From a bacterium (GTDB lineage: Bacteria; Patescibacteriota; Minisyncoccia; Moranbacterales; UBA2206): 51,595 nucleotides of DNA. The translations under genes were made by a program, and so were the position numbers. Shown piece by piece: positions 19,665 to 28,157 of this stretch. The DNA is taken from positions 1 through 51,595 of the forward strand of contig JAYSLY010000046.1 of NCBI GenBank assembly GCA_043725085.1, given 5' to 3'. The notes under the pieces were generated by a model that ran no database searches, was not told where the DNA came from, and saw only the letters and a program-made list of their open reading frames with translations. The first letter of the stretch is position 1. Each line of letters starts with the position of its first letter.

Positions 19665-19737
19665 TGCGCTTAGCAGGAATCGAACCTGCGACCTTCTGGA
19701 CCGCAACCAGACGCTCTATCCACTGAGCTATAAGCGC
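19665..19737 (-). tRNA. tRNA-Arg(GCG)
   Basis: GCGCTTA...TAAGCGC-A; anticodon arm TCTGG TT GCG GT CCAGA. Confidence 0.93.
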
Positions 19738-19745
19738 TTATTTTT

Positions 19746-19836
19746 TGGCGGAGAGGGTGGGATTCGAACCCACGTGCCCCTTTCGAGACTAGCGGTTTTC
19801 AAGACCGCCCCGTTATGACCGCTTCGGTACCTCTCC
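19746..19836 (-). tRNA. tRNA-Ser(TGA)
   Basis: GGAGAGG acceptor, long variable arm, anticodon loop CT TGA AA, encoded CCA. Confidence 0.96.
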
Positions 19837-19860
19837 AAAATATTAACAACAATTTCTAAT

Positions 19861-20322
19861 TCAATTTTTCTCCAGATAATGCTCTTCAGAGTGACAGTTT
19901 GGGCAGATGATTTCTAGATTATCTAAATTATTATTATTTCTGTCTCTATCCTTATGATGAATTTCTAGTATTTGGTATTTATCGAATCCGCATCTTTCAC
20001 ATTTACTTCCTCTGTCTTTCAATAACCTAGTTTTAAGAATTCTCTGCGTTTTAACTTTATCTCTGGTGTTGTTTAATTTGTATTTAATGCCCTCTCTATG
20101 TCTGTTTGCGCAACTTCTGCTACACGTTTTTTTGTTGAAAGTTGCTAGGATTAATTTTCCGCACACCAAGCAGGGAGTTTCTTTTCTGCAAAATTTGCCA
20201 TAGCATGCAACACTGCAAAAAACTTTGCCGTTATTTCTCTTAATTTCAGCAGGTCTTCTATATATTTTCTTTCTACATATCCGACAAGCTGTATTTGGTT
20301 TTCTTTTATATTGCTCAACCAT
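19861..20322 (-). CDS. HNH endonuclease with N-terminal zinc-ribbon repeats
   Basis: CxxC...FCSxxC twice, then CERC..LEIHHKD...N..DNLEIICPNCH.EEH. Confidence 0.9.
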   Translation of the reverse strand: MVEQYKRKPNTACRICRKKIYRRPAEIKRNNGKVFCSVACYGKFCRKETPCLVCGKLILATFNKKTCSRSCANRHREGIKYKLNNTRDKVKTQRILKTRLLKDRGSKCERCGFDKYQILEIHHKDRDRNNNNLDNLEIICPNCHSEEHYLEKN

Positions 20323-20682
20323 TTTATTAATGTACTAAAAAATTTCGATACCACTACGGCGTAGCGAAGGCGGAGAGGGAGCTGATTTCTCTCGCTCCGA
20401 CTCGAGCCTGGGTGCTGCGCGCTCTCGCACCCTTTAAATCCCTCACGCAAGCCAAATCGTTGGCTTGCTCCTCTCCTTGTTCACTTCATTCACGGCGGGG
20501 AGCATGGGACGAAGTTAGAACATACTGGCAAATCAATGCTCCCCAATTCATTATTTCCTAGTTTATCGGAAAGTGCCTAAAAAATCAAATAAGCGCAATA
20601 CATCATCCAAAACTATTGTGGTCCCCTTTGTCAACACAAATAAATTATTAAAATGAGAGAGAATTTTTTAAAAAATAATTAG

Positions 20683-21275
20683 CTATTGAAAATGCACTTC
20701 TTTGGGCGTTAAATATTCCAGAGATTGGTGTCGGTGGCTTTCATTGTAAAACTGAAAATATTCATTTAAACTGTTACGGGTTTCTGAAACGTTTCGGTAA
20801 TTGTTCAGATAAATGTTTTCTTGTTTCACGCTGCGCCACAATCTTTCCACAAAAATATTATCCAGGCACCGTCCACGACCGTCCATGCTGATTTGAATGT
20901 TTTGGGATTCCAGCGTACTTGTAAATTGCGGACTGGTAAACTGGCTGCCTTGGTCGGAATTGAATATTTTCGGCTTGTTTTTAGTTTGAGCCAATGCTTC
21001 ATTTAAACATCCCAGGCAAAAATCAATGTCGAGGCTGTTACTGAGTTTCCAGCTGATCACATAGCGGCTAAACCAATCAATGACAGCGACAAGATAAGCG
21101 AAACCCTCAGTTAAGTTCATAATCTGCTTGTCTTTTGAGCTGACGGTGGCTGATCTGTAGTAGGCGCTTTCCCGAGAAATGCCCAGCAACCGGCACTGCC
21201 CCCCCCAATGGTAAGCTTTTCATGCTCTTTTTCAATGAGCGCTACTTTCCGGCTATGGGGTAAATATTGATAATT
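20683..21275 (-). pseudogene. IS3 OrfB transposase remnant
   Basis: Keeps YLVAVIDWFSR, NSDQGSQFTS and DNIFVERLWRSVK.E but lacks the HTH and the first catalytic-Asp segment; frameshifted at an 8-G tract (21199-21206). Confidence 0.85.
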
Positions 21276-21555
21276 TTTTTTTGAGCCAGTCGAGCTCAAT
21301 GTCCCGCTGACCAATGACTTTATACAAATTGTCTAGTTGTTCCTGGTGTTCTGTTTTTTCTTGTTTTTCTTTTTTGCGGTTGTCTTTAAACAATTCGGAT
21401 AAATTTTCCATAGCTTGTTTTTTCCAGAGACCGATTTGGGTTGGATGCACTTGATAGTCGGAACTGATTTGCGCCATGGTTTTTTCTCCTTTGATGGCGA
21501 CTAGCACAATCCGGGCTTTCTCTTGGGGACTGAACGTCCTGGGTTTTTTGGTCAT
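21253..21555 (-). CDS. IS3 OrfA (HTH_Tnp_1-like)
   Basis: FSPQEKARIV...VHPTQI..WKKQ...LY..IGQ...ELDWLKKK; A9 slippery run at 21274-21282. Confidence 0.88.
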   Translation of the reverse strand: MTKKPRTFSPQEKARIVLVAIKGEKTMAQISSDYQVHPTQIGLWKKQAMENLSELFKDNRKKEKQEKTEHQEQLDNLYKVIGQRDIELDWLKKKLSIFTP

Positions 21556-21993
21556 AAATTTGGCTTAGTTTCCCTCTCTCATTTTAGCATATTTCGTGTG
21601 TAGATTTATGGGACCATTATACTTTTCCGAAAGAGCTGGACGGCGGAAGCGGGGCTTTGGTTTACCCTCGTACTAATTTTGGCATCAGATTTTACCTTTC
21701 GAAAATCAGAGCCGGCGGCGAATCGCTCGAAAAACTTTCTGCTTCTTCCGGCTTTCGCTGAAATTGGTGTCGGGGCGGGCGGAGCGGAAAAACGGTGGCG
21801 GGACTCTTTTTATTCCTCTTTTTTTGTATTTTAGCCGTCCTTGCCCCGCCCTCCCGTGCGCGGACGGCAAGTTGGAAATCCCTGGTTTTTGGATTTTGAA
21901 AACAACTGGTTTTGATGTATAATTTAAGCAGTTTCGGAAATCATTATTTTGATATTGATTTTAATCAGTATGTCCAGTATACTTCAAGTTATT

Positions 21994-22167
21994 ATGGCAA
22001 GAAGAAAATTGAAAGATAAAAATATACGGAAGATTTTGAAAAACGGCGACAGTTATGCGGTTACGATTCCGATTGAAATAATGTTGGAATTAAATTGGAA
22101 GGAGAAGCAAAAAGTTGTTGTGAAAAAAATCCGAGGCGGGTTTTCAGTGAAAGACTGGAAAAAATAA
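21994..22167 (+). CDS. AbrB/MazE/SpoVT-family DNA-binding protein
   Basis: NIRKI...GDSYAVTIP.EI...LNW.EKQKVVV swapped-hairpin signature. ATG 21994; ORF-track start is 21949. Confidence 0.8.
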   Translation: MARRKLKDKNIRKILKNGDSYAVTIPIEIMLELNWKEKQKVVVKKIRGGFSVKDWKK

Positions 22168-22185
22168 AAGTTAATCGAAAATAAT

Positions 22186-25100
22186 ATGATCAAAACAAAA
22201 ATCAATGTCAAATTTGAGAGAGAGAGAGAGAGAGTTAATGGCGCTCAAAAATTAGAAAACAGAAATCTTTTAGACTTTGGCCAAAAGATAATTTTAACTT
22301 GTCTTTTGGTTTTTATTTTTGGGCTTGGGGCGAAGGCGAGTGCGGCGACCTTAGCAAACCCAGAACAATGGCAATATCAAAAGAAGATTAACATTACTGG
22401 AACGGGATCCGCTGAAACTGATTACATTACCAATGTAAATTTACACTACGGATCATCTTCTGGCGATACCACAGCCAAAGATGTATTTCTTGACAGCCAT
22501 GCAAAGACTGATTTTTCTGATGTTAGAATTACTGATTCAACGGGCAATTTAATTCCCTTCTATTTGACCCCAGCCGTAAATGCAGAAATGATTTACAGCA
22601 ATACTAAAACCGGATATCATAATGTTCGACTTGCTGACGGTTCATTACTGGCTTACGGGGTATCGGGGCAAGCGGGTATAGTTCTTAGCACAGATAATGG
22701 GAATACTTGGACTCAGAAATTCGTTGTTTCTAGTATGGGAAGTTTGCTTTTTGTTGATTCGAGAGGTTATTGGTATTGGATGAGTGGGAATTTATTAAAG
22801 CGTTCAACAGACGGGGTGACATCTTCCACTGTTCTAGATATTGGGTCTAATAATAGTATCCAATGGATTGGAATGACCGAAGACAATTCTCATAATCTTT
22901 GGGTGGGACAATACACCTCTGATGGGGGAAATCGTCCTTCAATTCGGAAATCAACCGATGGAGGAGCGAACTTTAATGAAGTGCTTGGCTATACAACTTC
23001 GCCTGCATGGCAGACAAGTTATTCTTATGTTGTTGGAGATATTATCAGGCCGACAACCGCAAATAGTCACCTCTATTATGTTTCATCTGTCACAACTGGC
23101 ATTTCGAGCGGAAGCGAGCCTTCGTGGCCAACGACGACCAGCGCAACTGTGGTTGATGGAGGAGTAACCTGGAAAGAAAGCTCGTGGCAACATATTCATG
23201 GTATTGGTGCCGATCCTTATACTGGGAATATTTATTTTGGTTTTGATGGAGAGCCAGCTATTGTGAAATCCACCGATGGAACTACTTTTAAAGTACTGCG
23301 AGCCAATCTTGATGCTGATGTTACCCAAATGGCTTTCGCTCCTACTTATCGACTATTTGGCAGTGGAGCAAGCGCAGCTATGCAAGGGGAATCTTTACTA
23401 AAAGCAAACGCAGATGACTCAATCATAACGGCTATTTTCAATAGAGGCCAAGATATACAAGGAGTAAAAATCATAGGTTCTACTATTGTGATAAGTGGAG
23501 TTTCTTATGACAGAGCCGCTTACCCCGCTATATATGTCAGCACTGATGGTGGTACAACTTTTAATATGATGACTCACTATCCATTCGATTCATCCCTGAG
23601 CTTTAGTGGTTATGAATATTTTGACGGTCCGTATACTCCTGCGGGAGCAAGCGAAACAGCTATTTTTGCTGGTGGTAACGTTGGCACCGGATCAGGTTCT
23701 TATCCGAATGGGCGTATTTATGTGGGAAGTAATCACTACCAAGGTGAAGTCTATCTTAAAATTCCTTCTCTTCCAGCGGGAGGAAAAGATTTTTATGTTT
23801 GGTATGGCAATTCTTCAGCTACTTCGACCAGTGATGTAACAATGTTTCCAAATATGGTACAAAACACCCTTGTTGCTAGATGGAAAATGGATGAAGGTAG
23901 TGGAACGAGTGTAGTTGATTCGTGTGCCTCTTCCGGGGCTTCTTGCTTGGAGACCGGCACTCACAACGGAACGCTTACACATACATCCGGAAAAGGATCA
24001 TACAATGCTTTTAATGGGAGAAGGTCGGGAATGTATTATCCGGATATTAAACAATCTGGGGCTTCTTATAATTTCAATGCCGGTGATTATGTTGAGGTAG
24101 CAGATCATGCCAATCTCCAAATGGTTAAGAATTTTACGGTCACGGCTTGGATACGTGGAACAAATTTGGCAAGCAATCAATGCATAATTTGCAAGGGATC
24201 AAATTCAAGTGGAAATTTTTGGGGTCTTGCTACTGGAGGAACTGGTGGGAATTTGAAGTTTTATAACGGTAGCGGATCCACTTTTAAATATACAAGTTAT
24301 CCAGTTCCGCTCAATGCTTCAGATTGGAAAAATGTGACAGCGGTCATAGATAATGCAAGTCCGGCTAAAGTAACATTTTATGTAAATGGCGTAGTTGATG
24401 GAAGTTCGCAAACATTAAGTGCCGACGTTGGAAGTACGGTGGGATTGAATCTTAGAATAGGTGCTGATACGGCGAGCAATTTTAAATTTACTGGCGACAT
24501 TGATGACGTGCAAATTTATAATACCGCTCTTGCCGCCACTCAAATTCGCCAAATTTACGAAGACCGAATGTTTGCATCAGTCGAACCTTCAATCAGCTCT
24601 GCCACTTCAACTTATCCCATTTATGGAAACCCATATATTGAAGGTTTTGAATTACAGCCTTCATATACGATGGGGACAAATGAAGTAGACACCTCTGCTA
24701 ATGTTCGCGTGTATGGCGATGGAAAATTTCGAAACACTGAAACTGCCGGAGGAACGACTGCTGATCTTTACGTAATACCTCAAGGTAGTCAAACTACCAA
24801 ATGGCTGGATATTACCAAAGCAGATGATGAACTTTCTCTTATTTGGGAAGCAAATCATAAAAAATGGAAAGAATCCTCCATTATTTTGGGAGAAACAAAC
24901 ACGCTACACATTGTAGGTGATTTAGTAACCGGAAAAAAATATTCTCTTACCATTGACACCAGCTCTCCCAGTGGAAAAATCACCAGCACAGATTGTACCC
25001 AAGCGGGAGTTTGCACGGCTGACGGAACCGGGCATATTACTTTTACCTATACCGGCGGATATTCCGATCATACTTTTGATATCACTGATAATATCGCGCC

Positions 25101-26349
25101 CGCATTTTCCAATATTTCCCCGGCTTCCGGCGCAACAGTTTCCACTGATGACACTATCACTTTCACTGACAGCGAAACAACGAGTCCACAATGTTCTTTG
25201 GATAATTCCCATTGGAACAACTGCACCACGACTGTCACCAGTTTTCATGATCTCACTGGCTGGTCATCAATCAATGAAGGTGACACTTTCACTCTCTTTC
25301 TCAAAGACACAGACGCTGCTAATAATACTGGAACAGCACGAGTGGATAATCTTACCAAAGCCGATGAATCTGCGCCTGTTCGTAACGGCGGCTCGCCAAG
25401 CGGGAATTTATCTTCTGGCACCACCTCAACAACTCTAAGTCTCACTACCAGCGAAACCGCTACCTGTAAATATTCCGCATCTTCCGGAACAACATATGCC
25501 GATATGACCAGTAGCCTTGATACTACAAACGGCACAACACACACCAAAAGCATTTCCGGCCTAACTGATGGCAATTCATATAATTACTATGTCCGATGTG
25601 AAGACGCTTCGCATAATACCAATAACACAGATTATCTGATCAGTTTCTCTGTTGCGAAACCAAATACTAATGAAAATACTGATAATAATACTGATGACGA
25701 TAAAAACTTGAATATCCACAATGTTAAAGCCGAATCTACAGAAAATACGATAACCATCACCTGGAAAACCGATTATAACACCAAATCAACAATCAGATAT
25801 GGAAGAAACAAAAACCTTAGTGAAAAGAAAAAAGACAACAGCAAAGAGAAAAAACACGAGGTGATTTTGAAAAATCTTGAACCAAATACAAAATACTATT
25901 TCCGCATTAAGGCCACTGATAGCGACGGTAACGAAGATTCCGGCAGTATTCACTCTATTGTGACCAAATCTGCTTCTTCGCAAACAACGAATCAAATTTC
26001 CAACCAAAATCAAACAGAAAATCAAAATCAACCAAGCACAACAGAAAATATCCAAACTCCGTCATATTCCGGAAATTCCACACCAAACGCTTGTTCATAC
26101 ATCGTTCAATCCGGCGACACACTTTTGACGATTGCCAAAAAAGTTTATGGCGATGCTACCGCTTATCCTCAAATCATCGAGAAAAACAAAGACAAATATC
26201 CGGACATTGAATCAAAACTTTCTATTGGGCAGGAGTTGACTTTTTGCGACCCCGTAAAATCGCCTGACAGCGATCACGGGGCAAGCAACAATCAAAATCA
26301 GCCCCAAACCAAAACTTTTCGCTGGTGGAATCCCTTCTCTTGGTTTTAA
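22186..26349 (+). CDS. Large secreted surface protein (DUF2341-like, BNR/Asp-box propeller, LamG, Ig/FN3, LysM)
   Basis: Signal peptide; STDxGxT[WF] Asp-boxes; LamG (ARWKMDEGSG...FTGDIDDVQIYNTAL); FN3 (LEPNTKYYFRIKA); LysM (YIVQSGDTL..IA..VYGD). Confidence 0.88.
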   Translation: MIKTKINVKFERERERVNGAQKLENRNLLDFGQKIILTCLLVFIFGLGAKASAATLANPEQWQYQKKINITGTGSAETDYITNVNLHYGSSSGDTTAKDVFLDSHAKTDFSDVRITDSTGNLIPFYLTPAVNAEMIYSNTKTGYHNVRLADGSLLAYGVSGQAGIVLSTDNGNTWTQKFVVSSMGSLLFVDSRGYWYWMSGNLLKRSTDGVTSSTVLDIGSNNSIQWIGMTEDNSHNLWVGQYTSDGGNRPSIRKSTDGGANFNEVLGYTTSPAWQTSYSYVVGDIIRPTTANSHLYYVSSVTTGISSGSEPSWPTTTSATVVDGGVTWKESSWQHIHGIGADPYTGNIYFGFDGEPAIVKSTDGTTFKVLRANLDADVTQMAFAPTYRLFGSGASAAMQGESLLKANADDSIITAIFNRGQDIQGVKIIGSTIVISGVSYDRAAYPAIYVSTDGGTTFNMMTHYPFDSSLSFSGYEYFDGPYTPAGASETAIFAGGNVGTGSGSYPNGRIYVGSNHYQGEVYLKIPSLPAGGKDFYVWYGNSSATSTSDVTMFPNMVQNTLVARWKMDEGSGTSVVDSCASSGASCLETGTHNGTLTHTSGKGSYNAFNGRRSGMYYPDIKQSGASYNFNAGDYVEVADHANLQMVKNFTVTAWIRGTNLASNQCIICKGSNSSGNFWGLATGGTGGNLKFYNGSGSTFKYTSYPVPLNASDWKNVTAVIDNASPAKVTFYVNGVVDGSSQTLSADVGSTVGLNLRIGADTASNFKFTGDIDDVQIYNTALAATQIRQIYEDRMFASVEPSISSATSTYPIYGNPYIEGFELQPSYTMGTNEVDTSANVRVYGDGKFRNTETAGGTTADLYVIPQGSQTTKWLDITKADDELSLIWEANHKKWKESSIILGETNTLHIVGDLVTGKKYSLTIDTSSPSGKITSTDCTQAGVCTADGTGHITFTYTGGYSDHTFDITDNIAPAFSNISPASGATVSTDDTITFTDSETTSPQCSLDNSHWNNCTTTVTSFHDLTGWSSINEGDTFTLFLKDTDAANNTGTARVDNLTKADESAPVRNGGSPSGNLSSGTTSTTLSLTTSETATCKYSASSGTTYADMTSSLDTTNGTTHTKSISGLTDGNSYNYYVRCEDASHNTNNTDYLISFSVAKPNTNENTDNNTDDDKNLNIHNVKAESTENTITITWKTDYNTKSTIRYGRNKNLSEKKKDNSKEKKHEVILKNLEPNTKYYFRIKATDSDGNEDSGSIHSIVTKSASSQTTNQISNQNQTENQNQPSTTENIQTPSYSGNSTPNACSYIVQSGDTLLTIAKKVYGDATAYPQIIEKNKDKYPDIESKLSIGQELTFCDPVKSPDSDHGASNNQNQPQTKTFRWWNPFSWF
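22216..22234 (+). repeat. (GA)9G simple sequence repeat in the 5' coding region
   Basis: GAGAGAGAGAGAGAGAGAG encoding ERERER; currently in frame. Confidence 0.9.
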
Positions 26350-26504
26350 CGCCAAACTCTTGATAAAACCTCAAAAGGGAGGTGTATTTGTTTAAGCGTG
26401 CGCGAATGGGTCGGGTGGGTCAAGCACGCTTACCTTTTTATTATATTTTTTCTTAATTTTCCGCCGACCAATTTTTTCGCGGGAATTCTGATTTCGTTTT
26501 AATG

Positions 26505-26591
26505 CGGAGAGGGAGGGATTTGAACCCTCGAAGGGTTTTACCCCTTGCCACGTTAGCAGTGTGGTGCTTTCAGCCACTCAGCCACCTCTCC
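26505..26591 (-). tRNA. tRNA-Ser(GCT)
   Basis: GGAGAGG...CCTCTCC-G, long variable arm, anticodon loop CT GCT AA. Confidence 0.93.
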
Positions 26592-26742
26592 AATTTTTTT
26601 TATTCTATTGTAAAGGATACGATCACTCTCAGTCCTAGACTGATGGGTCTTCGGCCTGAATCTACATCTCCAAATGCCATAAATCTTAACTTTTAAATAC
26701 TACCAGCTGGATTGCTAATTGTAAACCCCGCGCATAGGCATC

Positions 26743-26772
26743 TGTAGGGATGGGGCATTGCCTCGTTTCTAT
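26743..26772. repeat. Degenerate GTAG-type REP
   Basis: TGTAGGGATGGGGCATTGCCTCGTTTCTAT, a diverged relative of 48723-48752. Confidence 0.65.
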
Positions 26773-26818
26773 CTAATGTGTTAATATGAATTAAAGTCGG
26801 CAATTTATTGGAAATTAA

Positions 26819-27409
26819 ATGTATATCGAAAATCACAATAAACATATTGAAAATGATGACGAGGAAGAGTTGCTTTTGGAGAAAAATCACAGGGAACCGG
26901 AAATGCTCGAAGCTCCTGCAAATGAAGAGCTGATAGCGCAACATTCTAAGGATACGCTGATGCATTGGAGTGCGCCGGAGTTTGAAATGTTCGAAAAAGA
27001 TAAAAAGCGTCTTTCCTATATCGCACTTGTTCTTTTGGTAATTATTGTTTATGCAACCTTTACCAATAATCCAATCATGGCGATTGTTTTTGTGCTCATC
27101 GGAATCGTCGCCTATATGCAGCTCAACAAGGAGCCGCGCATCTTGGATTTTCGCATTGTGCCCAAAGGAGTTTTGGCTGGCAATGAAATATACGAGTTTG
27201 AAAATATGCGTTCTTTTTGGATTTTTTATGATCCAAAGTATAAAAAAATAATCAGCTTGCACACCAAGAACTATCTTACACCCTTTGTGCATATTCCCGT
27301 TGAAAACGAAGACCCGGTGGAAATTCGCCGAATTTTGCTCAAATATATTCCGGAAATCAAACAAGAACATAATTTTGCCGAAATATTGGAAAGGTTTTTG
27401 GGAGTATGA
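26819..27409 (+). CDS. Hypothetical membrane protein (two TM helices plus soluble domain)
   Basis: 196 aa; W.APEF motif, TM hairpin, SFWIFY. Confidence 0.8.
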   Translation: MYIENHNKHIENDDEEELLLEKNHREPEMLEAPANEELIAQHSKDTLMHWSAPEFEMFEKDKKRLSYIALVLLVIIVYATFTNNPIMAIVFVLIGIVAYMQLNKEPRILDFRIVPKGVLAGNEIYEFENMRSFWIFYDPKYKKIISLHTKNYLTPFVHIPVENEDPVEIRRILLKYIPEIKQEHNFAEILERFLGV

Positions 27410-27433
27410 TGACGCTTTTTACTTTTTAGATTT

Positions 27434-27507
27434 CGGGCTGTAGTATGCCGGTAGTACGCGTCCATGGGGTGGATGTAGACCGAGTTCGATTCTCGGCAGC
27501 CCGACCA
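27434..27507 (+). tRNA. tRNA-Pro(GGG)
   Basis: CGGGCTG...CAGCCCG-A-CCA; anticodon arm CGTCC AT GGG GT GGATG. Confidence 0.92.
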
Positions 27508-27551
27508 GGATAGCAGGGGGGGGCAGAAAAACGATCTAACCGGATAAAATC

Positions 27552-28157
27552 ATGGATCTCTCAAATTTTTCAGGCGCTTTTGATTGGATTATCCAGCATG
27601 GGTATTTTTTGATGTTTGTTATCATGCTTATTGAAGGTCCGGTGATCACGGCTGCGGCCGCTTTTGCTGTGGCCTTAGGTTATTTTGATGGTTGGTTAGT
27701 TTTCTTGCTTTCTATTTTGGGCAACCTGATTCCGGATGTGATCTATTACGCCTTGGGTTATTGGGGACGAGAAAGATTAGTCAATAAATATGCGCACCTT
27801 TTCGGTTTGCCGCACGACAGGATAGTTTATTTGGAAAATCTTTCTCGGCGGCACGCAGGAAAAGCGATGACTCTGATTAAGCTAGTTCCGCTTTTAGCAA
27901 CCCCTGGACTGATTATCGCTGGAGCGATCAAAATGCCACTTAGGAAATATATTAATTGGTGCATAATTCTCACCATTCCCTCTTCACTTTTTTTCTATCT
28001 CATCGGCTACTATTTTGGAGCTGCCTATGATAAAATAAATCACTACCTTAATCTGGGAGGACTAGCGCTAATTTTAATGCTAATTCTTTTCGTCTCGGCA
28101 TCTTATGGCTATGGAAAACTGACCGCCAGATTTGCCAAGAAAATCGATAAATCATAA
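27552..28157 (+). CDS. DedA/VTT family membrane protein (paralog of 13898-14506)
   Basis: HGYFLMF..MLIEGP, GNLIPD..YY.LG and AGAIKMP motifs. Confidence 0.9.
   Translation: MDLSNFSGAFDWIIQHGYFLMFVIMLIEGPVITAAAAFAVALGYFDGWLVFLLSILGNLIPDVIYYALGYWGRERLVNKYAHLFGLPHDRIVYLENLSRRHAGKAMTLIKLVPLLATPGLIIAGAIKMPLRKYINWCIILTIPSSLFFYLIGYYFGAAYDKINHYLNLGGLALILMLILFVSASYGYGKLTARFAKKIDKS

Follow-up and report, generated by a model that had tools for sequence, protein, structure and literature searches.

The 51,595-nt contig JAYSLY010000046.1 of assembly GCA_043725085.1 (the whole stretch analysed here, hereafter the window) comes from a host genome (G000) of 1,021,134 bases with 40% G+C, and carries two inverted hairpins with C-rich loops on either side of a segment that encodes a small DNA-binding protein and a giant protein. 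These hairpins belong to a conserved motif family with covarying stems, which recurs as inward-facing pairs with differentiated ends around variable cargo and marks a sharp inner homology boundary. In some relatives, such pairs are found within long inverted arms and beside recombinase genes, and in the window the arrangement lies in an island inserted at a tRNA gene. We put the probability at about 0.5 that the hairpins are the conserved cores of the end modules of a family of mobile cargo cassettes in Patescibacteria that are moved in trans. A literature search, with supplementary files outside its coverage, found neither the motif nor any serine-recombinase cassette of this phylum described, and the motif-marked cassette is apparently a kind undescribed so far.

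The initial annotation had described an inverted pair of hairpins whose stems differ in sequence and still pair, and this description is confirmed. In the left module, G-rich blocks and a T-rich stretch are followed on the forward strand by a hairpin at 21834-21868, with a 7-bp stem (21834-21840 and 21862-21868) and a 21-nt loop (21841-21861); the conserved part closes with a CTCCC-like word, here ATCCC, at about 21885-21889. The right hairpin, read on the reverse strand, has a stem of 6 pairs extendable to 8 (26429-26424 and 26401-26396) and a 22-nt loop (26423-26402), with the CTCCC word again after the hairpin; the first block of this copy begins 8 nt from the tRNA-Ser(GCU) 3' end (26504). 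The two stem sequences are unrelated, while both loops have a common frame of TTG, three CCC tracts and N-T-N-CGC, which reads as three G tracts on the opposite strand. Only an AbrB/MazE-type open reading frame (ORF) and the ORF of the 1387-aa protein lie between the hairpins, in line with the earlier statement that no recombinase does.

The loop is highly specific. Its exact pattern, TTG-N-CCC-N-CCC-N(1-2)-CCC-N-T-N-CGC, has two matches in the entire host genome, both of them the window hairpins, and with up to three mismatches it matched twice in the window against 0.18 expected, a number reached in 1 of 100 shuffles. Taken singly, the short flanking blocks are weaker (4 matches of the second block, 2.0 expected), and a GCGGAA word 5' of the hairpin is found in 19 of the 25 family copies compared. 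A covariance model of the motif (R1) detected three copies in the host genome; the third, at C56:35128-35192, lies beside a large serine recombinase gene and was absent from the initial annotation. In Rfam 15, no family covers either hairpin at the gathering score, and at E values up to 10 the left hairpin reached 15.5 bits at best and the right one matched nothing. The same search on 40 related loci returned tRNAs, one group I intron and one SAM riboswitch only, none of them on the motif. A chance likeness of the two hairpins is rejected by the pattern counts, a reversed control pattern and the stem covariation described below. Two further candidates were discarded by eye: the loop word TTGACC is probably not a promoter -35 element, as no -10 word stands at the right distance in the copies inspected; and pairing of the loop with the upstream G-rich block, for which both window copies have 6-7 nt exactly complementary to the respective loop, failed in the family copies inspected. 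The features of the region are listed in Table 1.

Table 1. Features of the window island and its boundaries, by position in the window
Feature	Position	Strand	Remarks
Second copy of the 12-nt tRNA-Ser(GCU) 3' end	20370-20381	-	Far island boundary, same orientation
Hairpin-rich non-coding stretch, 227 nt	20382-20608	.	Resembles by eye the spacer after tRNA-Ser(GCU) in genome G011
IS3-family element	20609-21626	-	HTH_Tnp_1 ORF 21253-21555, rve ORF 20683-21189, 53-nt imperfect terminal repeats
Left end module, type S2, promoter side	21627-21891	+	R1 55.4 bits, E 4.9e-13
Promoter-like site, TTGAAA, 16-nt spacer, TATAAT	21896-21923	+	11 of 12; top score in 21500-26700
Small AbrB/MazE-type (SpoVT-AbrB fold) DNA-binding protein	21949-22167	+	First cargo gene
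1387-aa cargo protein	22186-26349	+	LamG-like, DUF2341, FN3 and LysM domains
Right end module, type S1, terminator side	26366-26503	-	R1 48.4 bits, E 7.1e-11
tRNA-Ser(GCU)	26504-26591	-	Last 12 nt (26504-26515) form one direct-repeat copy bounding the island

We then examined the distribution of the motif in 101 related genomes and in a sample of 151 genomes of the class. At a tolerance of one mismatch, the loop pattern occurs at 25 places in 21 of the 101 related genomes, compared with 3 for the reversed control; at least two of the 25 (in G057 and G016) are stemless and look like chance matches in coding sequence. The exact pattern, taken over one genome per species, gave at least 120 stretches; those from high-G+C genomes have no stem, and the roughly 70 that do have one are from records labelled with many Patescibacteria lineages. 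The covariance model, a check suggested by the initial annotation, matched 24 of the 101 relatives (44 copies) and 36 of the 151 class genomes, at 1-6 copies per genome. Across 75 sequences and 7 stem pairs, 88% of the cells are paired, compared with 64% in shuffles, and 130 cells carry a double change, compared with 43; none of 500 shuffles reached either value. Copies found by the model and not by the pattern still begin the loop with TTG, end it with CGC and have three C tracts, the spacers being 1-4 nt long. The loop is 21-23 nt long throughout the family, and the CTCCC word is conserved 10-50 nt 3' of the hairpin.

The motif is absent from 77 of the 101 relatives, including 11 of the 13 genomes of the host genus, and is therefore accessory and not a signal recognition particle (SRP) or 6S RNA in disguise, a candidate rejected on this distribution and on the presence of three copies here. 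All three host copies lie in accessory DNA. A passing resemblance between the loop and a portion of 5S rRNA led nowhere; 5S rRNA, RNase P RNA and tmRNA are located elsewhere in the host genome. A phage origin was rejected as well, since 10 IMG/VR contigs with the exact loop pattern gave no full-length match to the model, only loop matches of 19-27 bits. As a separate observation, the bacterial small SRP RNA model (RF00169) matched none of 21 genomes of this order, the host and 20 relatives, but 12 of 14 control genomes, and neither the large SRP model (RF01854) nor the 6S model (RF00013) matched the host genome; the SRP RNA of this order may be very divergent.

Two stem types recur across genomes. 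The S2 type, like the left window copy, follows a T-rich run, and the S1 type, like the right copy, follows an A-rich run and often has a TATAAT-like word. In 39 of the 75 copies, at least five A residues occur in the 10 nt before the stem, giving a U-rich tail on the G-loop strand; in 6 of 75 the 10 nt after the stem are T-rich. For the 44 copies of the 101 genomes, pairing within 10 kb on the same contig gives nine inward-facing pairs, two direct pairs and no outward-facing one, and the class sample adds one more inward-facing pair. Every typed bracket holds one S1 and one S2 module, with the cargo reading from S2 to S1 in six of six, and ORFs of at least 150 aa run from one module to the other in eight of nine brackets. 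The likeness between brackets of different genomes ends right after the CTCCC word on the cargo side, beyond which the cargo is unrelated. The paired inverted occurrence around variable cargo that had been proposed is thus borne out by these nine pairs. Direct-orientation copies 0.8-5.3 kb apart on one contig (L004 on G074:C59, L006/L203 on G063:C55, L041, L076, L135 and L204) were also seen, which suggests cassette arrays or nested islands.

The enclosed genes are diverse. Restriction-modification genes, hydrolases, radical SAM enzymes, regulators, other defence-like genes, surface proteins and small-molecule enzymes were all found, so that the cargo is not specific to surface proteins as the initial annotation had supposed. 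Three settings of the motif recur. At about 20 of 76 copies, the motif is followed by ~110 nt with -35 and -10 words, a gene for a 65-73-aa XRE-type HTH protein and the cargo, which includes NgoPII and AccI restriction enzymes, D12 methyltransferases, a hydrolase and an IS. In the second setting, which includes the right window copy, the 3' end of a convergent gene (HerA-like ATPase, PD-(D/E)XK nuclease, DUF4238, DKNYY or carboxypeptidase) lies within 20-105 nt after the motif. In the third, seen at four loci, a large serine recombinase gene with the same direction as the motif starts 61-63 nt downstream of it.

The window cassette follows the same plan. Its promoter-like site comes directly after the left hairpin, and like-placed -35 and -10 words follow the motif in other genomes too; the AbrB-type gene occupies the slot held elsewhere by the XRE-type gene, and the 1387-aa cargo protein is probably on the cell surface. 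On the forward strand, a T-rich run after the right hairpin makes it terminator-like for the cargo operon. Compared with an intrinsic (Rho-independent) terminator, a GC-rich hairpin with a U run directly after it, the right copy fits on this strand and the left copy on neither; the S1 copy plausibly terminates the cargo operon. The predicted cargo promoter is downstream of the S2 copy, which would therefore not be in the cargo mRNA.

The hairpins had been read as the ends of an element. They are not its outermost parts and lie at the cargo-side edge of much longer arms of ~250-300 nt, at the point where otherwise identical arms split into S1 and S2. Near-perfect inverted arms (99-198 nt, 99-100% identity) are present in three of seven brackets tested: L197 (198 nt at 99%), L202 (139 nt at 100% plus 59 nt at 92%) and L199 (99 nt at 100%, cut by the contig end). 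The arms of L201 share 57 nt at 89%, and those of L196, L198 and the window contain no inverted repeat of at least 30 nt. At one further locus, L024 (G081:C33, 236-321), a tRNA-Met gene is joined directly to the 3' half of a C-loop hairpin whose 5' arm is missing, and the 33 nt past the junction match the copy in G073. This has the look of recombination within a shared word of 8 nt, in one instance only, 236 nt away from the end of its contig.

The motif is also linked to large serine recombinases, a co-occurrence that had been proposed as a check. At 10 of the 44 copies, a Recombinase-domain match is found 929-1172 nt from the motif on its 5' side, on the opposite strand and reading away, and Pfam identifies Resolvase, Recombinase and Zn_ribbon_recom domains in 12 neighbouring proteins. 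There are ~140 such recombinase genes in the roughly 100 Mb of the 101 genomes, and by a rough estimate random adjacency would be well under 1%. Large serine recombinase genes of the host genome are on contigs C33, C55 and C56, and the third host copy, on C56, shows the full arrangement of tRNA-Pro, tRNA-Gly(UCC), recombinase, module and XRE gene. In some relatives the recombinase is encoded inside the island.

The recombinase genes have repeats of their own. All eight that we examined, namely L205 (G000:C56; 4253-4342 and 5866-5955), L202, L206, L022, L086, L117, L135 and L076, are flanked by inverted repeats of 90-217 nt with 90-100% identity, one arm of which covers the 3' end of the recombinase gene itself. 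In L205, L202 and L022, that arm begins in the last 4-6 nt of a tRNA gene, and the far arm contains an inverted copy of the tRNA end. The gene and its repeats may form a self-inverting or long-armed recombinase unit, and these palindromic repeats would be better candidate att sites than the C-loop hairpin. In recombinase-linked modules a second hairpin, with a stem of ~17 bp, is located ~100 nt outside the C-loop hairpin (L205 5994-6066, with like places in L002, L012, L148 and L022); its loop has three G tracts and so reads on the other strand as another C-tract loop, facing the opposite way.

The window island is an insertion at the 3' end of tRNA-Ser(GCU). It spans 20382-26503 (6.1 kb) and comprises the S1 module, the giant gene with the AbrB-type gene and promoter, the S2 module, the IS3 element and the 227-nt stretch, between two copies of the tRNA end (Table 1). 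To the left of the far copy, the sequence that follows tRNA-Ser(GCU) in relatives resumes. The gap between tRNA-Ser(GCU) and tRNA-Ser(UGA) measures 24-550 nt in six of six same-genus genomes, compared with 6,667 nt in the window, and R1 has no match in 25 orthologous loci of the genus. The IS3 element, which the initial annotation did not mention, abuts the left module and was inserted at its outer edge. A second pair of filled and empty sites is provided by G021, where a 5.7-kb insert after tRNA-Gly(UCC) has no counterpart in G047, in which the tRNA is followed at once by the DNA from the far side of the insert; besides a recombinase and a bracket, the insert includes some 770 nt outside the latter, and no repeat of the tRNA end was found in this comparison. 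No empty site for the G016 bracket was obtained from G045 or G057, where the flank gene is not conserved. More generally, several motif copies stand immediately after a tRNA gene of their own strand, which agrees with the tRNA association first noted from the window.

Altogether, we propose that a cassette would consist, in order, of an outer arm, the S2 module with its C-loop hairpin and CTCCC word, a promoter, usually a small DNA-binding regulator, the cargo, the S1 module and the inverted arm. A recombinase acting in trans, most likely one of the large serine recombinases beside S2-type modules, would move or exchange such cassettes. A fixed loop on free stems points to a folded single strand that is read by a sequence-specific partner, and the hairpin would present this loop, as a folded single strand or a cruciform, to such a factor. 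The S1 copy would also end cargo transcription, and the S2 copy would bound the cargo promoter. Mobility of the cassette as a unit, the identity of the responsible recombinase and the nature of the loop reader are what we infer from the sequences.

A number of observations weigh against this proposal. The related genomes are non-independent samples, and the loop invariance in the 75-sequence set was partly forced by the collecting pattern. Bracket L202 is an exception to the polarity rule, with cargo on both strands, and no target-site duplication was seen by eye at its arm ends. The window arms are only ~65% alike; they have diverged, and this copy may be old or immobile. No recombinase is encoded in the window island, which contains only the IS3 transposase (HTH_Tnp_1 and rve), and for 34 of the 44 motif copies the nearest ~1.2 kb is free of recombinase genes; of these, at least seven are at contig ends. 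At the genome level the link is weak, with recombinases in 18 of 24 motif genomes and 48 of 77 motif-less ones. The G021 insert extends past its bracket, so that the bracket is a sub-unit of the island and not demonstrably self-moving. The wobble counts in the stems (10 G-U and 16 A-C) indicate no strand, and thus do not distinguish DNA from RNA. Finally, contigs from four DNA runs of one study, two of them possibly the source of the host genome, were colinear, though contigs drop rare variants, with 19749-27600 and showed no excised, circular or inverted form, only the window orientation, so the excision or inversion for which the initial annotation suggested looking was not seen there. Joints between ~19730-19790 and 26504-26566 did occur; because their sides are short (at most 33 letters), lie within tRNA sequence only and have a depth far above that of the organism, we took them for tRNA genes of other organisms.

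Could the module act as an RNA? In RsaE/RoxS-type RNAs, G-rich ribosome-binding sites are bound by C-rich loops, and the C-rich loop and single-stranded CUCCC of a small regulatory RNA or leader could do the same here, with the pairing around cargo being secondary. Functional RNA hairpins typically combine a fixed loop with stems that covary, the CUCCC word is kept 10-50 nt 3' of the hairpin, and S1 copies have by eye a -10-like word (TATAAT or TATAAA) just upstream of it. At the four loci of the third setting, the distance of 61-63 nt to the recombinase start codon leaves no room for a promoter, and the module there should accordingly be in the 5' leader. A parallel is offered by the UCCC loop motif reported in Staphylococcus regulatory RNAs (PMC2790875). 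We nevertheless consider an RNA role unlikely. The S2 copy is outside the cargo mRNA, there is no wobble bias towards the C-loop strand, and the folding energies of the window hairpins are no better than those of shuffles (z 0.66 and -0.45). Promoter-side copies have no consistent terminator after CUCCC, a look-up of RNA runs for 21600-22400 of the window listed none, and a motif missing from 77 of 101 relatives is no core regulator.

The earlier suggestion of cassette exchange could be taken further, to an integron-like system run by the serine recombinase, in which C-loop hairpins, extruded from the inner edge of each arm as single-stranded folds or cruciforms, would be the sites of cutting and pasting, any two-module cassette could be swapped into any resident pair, and the repeats flanking the recombinase genes would belong to the same machinery; we regard this as distinctly improbable. 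Integron attC sites are folded cassette borders that keep their structure while the sequence varies, and the recombinase gene of an integron reads away from the first cassette. They have conserved stem ends and a variable loop, are directly oriented with one per cassette, and are used by the tyrosine recombinase IntI. The likeness therefore lies in the folded border site, the outward-reading recombinase and the highly variable cargo, whereas here the loop is fixed and the stems vary, pairs are inward rather than direct (nine and two), the cassette has its own promoter and the recombinase is of the serine type. Of the exchange idea itself, the inverted pair, the variable cargo, the tRNA setting and the nearby recombinase stand; recombination at the hairpins is conjectural.

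A slimmer chance is left for the inverted arms being crossover sites at which the neighbouring large serine recombinase flips the cargo and its own gene. Hin and Gin are small serine invertases that act on two like 26-bp sites, gin adjoins the G segment, and the switching alters the expression of surface or host-range proteins; the inverted sites around a surface-protein segment and the adjacent serine recombinase gene resemble this. The near-perfect long inverted repeats around cargo in three relatives, the repeats at eight of eight recombinase genes (as expected of actively recombining inverted sites) and the position of the recombinase just outside the bracket would all fit. So would the inversion of a segment with tRNA-Ser(GCU) and the next ORF in four of six same-genus genomes, and the many copies within ~420 nt of contig ends (10 in the class sample), as if assemblies break at switching repeats. 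However, the recombinase here is large, the cargo promoter lies inside the segment, so that flipping would not switch the cargo, and the two modules of a bracket consistently differ in type, unlike hix or gix pairs. In addition, all 10 recombinase-linked copies are in one relative orientation, the window arms have diverged, and contigs of the four runs show one orientation only.

Least probable is that the hairpins are ordinary terminators or insulators at operon borders, alike through shared flanking ancestry and with a loop that has no specific reader: on the cargo strand the S1 copy resembles a terminator, the A-rich lead is present in 39 of 75 copies and many copies lie between convergent genes, but a loop of 21-23 nt far exceeds those of terminators, S2 copies have their T-rich run on the wrong side, the class-wide loop is kept while stems change (the reverse of what descent alone predicts), and the CTCCC word and the sharp homology boundary are left unexplained.

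The proposed mobile cassettes share traits with several known systems. SCC elements are moved by the Ccr large serine recombinases, insert at the rlmH 3' end and carry variable cargo between terminal inverted repeats and short direct repeats; they form arrays, and recombinase-less forms are thought to be moved in trans. The cassettes here are alike in cargo and 3'-end insertion, in some brackets also in their inverted repeats, and perhaps in forming arrays, whereas the target is a tRNA gene and not rlmH. The arms of SCC are short, and we know of no structured fixed-loop hairpin at their inner edge. REP, BIME, REPIN and Correia elements are small GC-rich intergenic hairpins, often at gene ends and sometimes in inverted pairs or acting as terminators, which have a conserved stem, carry no cargo and reach tens to hundreds of copies per genome; here, in contrast, there are 1-6 copies, the pair encloses kilobases of cargo and it is the loop that is conserved. 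The tycheposons of Prochlorococcus, as far as the portions of the preprint used here describe them (bioRxiv 10.1101/2020.12.28.424599), are likewise cargo units at tRNA genes bounded by partial tRNA copies, with several units per island and niche or defence cargo, and 27 of 937 use a large serine recombinase. In the same portions they are defined by an integrase and replication modules, and neither a conserved hairpin module nor long inverted cargo arms are described; in the cassettes no replication genes were found, and all the recombinases seen were of the large serine type.

The genomes of Patescibacteria are tiny, and the usual description is that they contain few classical mobile elements; living on hosts and surviving phages nevertheless requires variation in surface and defence genes. 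A searchable motif that marks both borders of a cassette gives a direct handle on the flexible genes of these bacteria. If the neighbouring recombinases do move the cassettes, they would add to the site-specific recombinases a new group whose sites can be defined, in an enzyme class that is useful in genome engineering. The fixed loop of 21-23 nt, going by its conservation, would imply a partner, either a protein or a nucleic acid.

The surroundings of the insertion site deserve mention in their own right. Small selfish genes accumulate in the gap after tRNA-Ser(GCU), which is a hotspot for them: an HNH endonuclease ORF is present at 19861-20322 (reverse strand) of the window, GIY-YIG-nuclease-like ORFs were recognized by eye in this gap beside GC-rich tandem repeats in G006, G003 and G009, and L212, L213 and L222, between two tRNA-Ser genes, represent the same hotspot. 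The segment with tRNA-Ser(GCU) and a 196-aa ORF (26504-27409) is inverted relative to its flanks in four of six same-genus genomes, the genomes compared including G001, G003, G009 and G011, and the order of four tRNA genes varies as well. At L019 (221-461), a group I intron (78.8 bits) was identified ~800 nt upstream of the tRNA-Gly gene that precedes the motif copy of G019.

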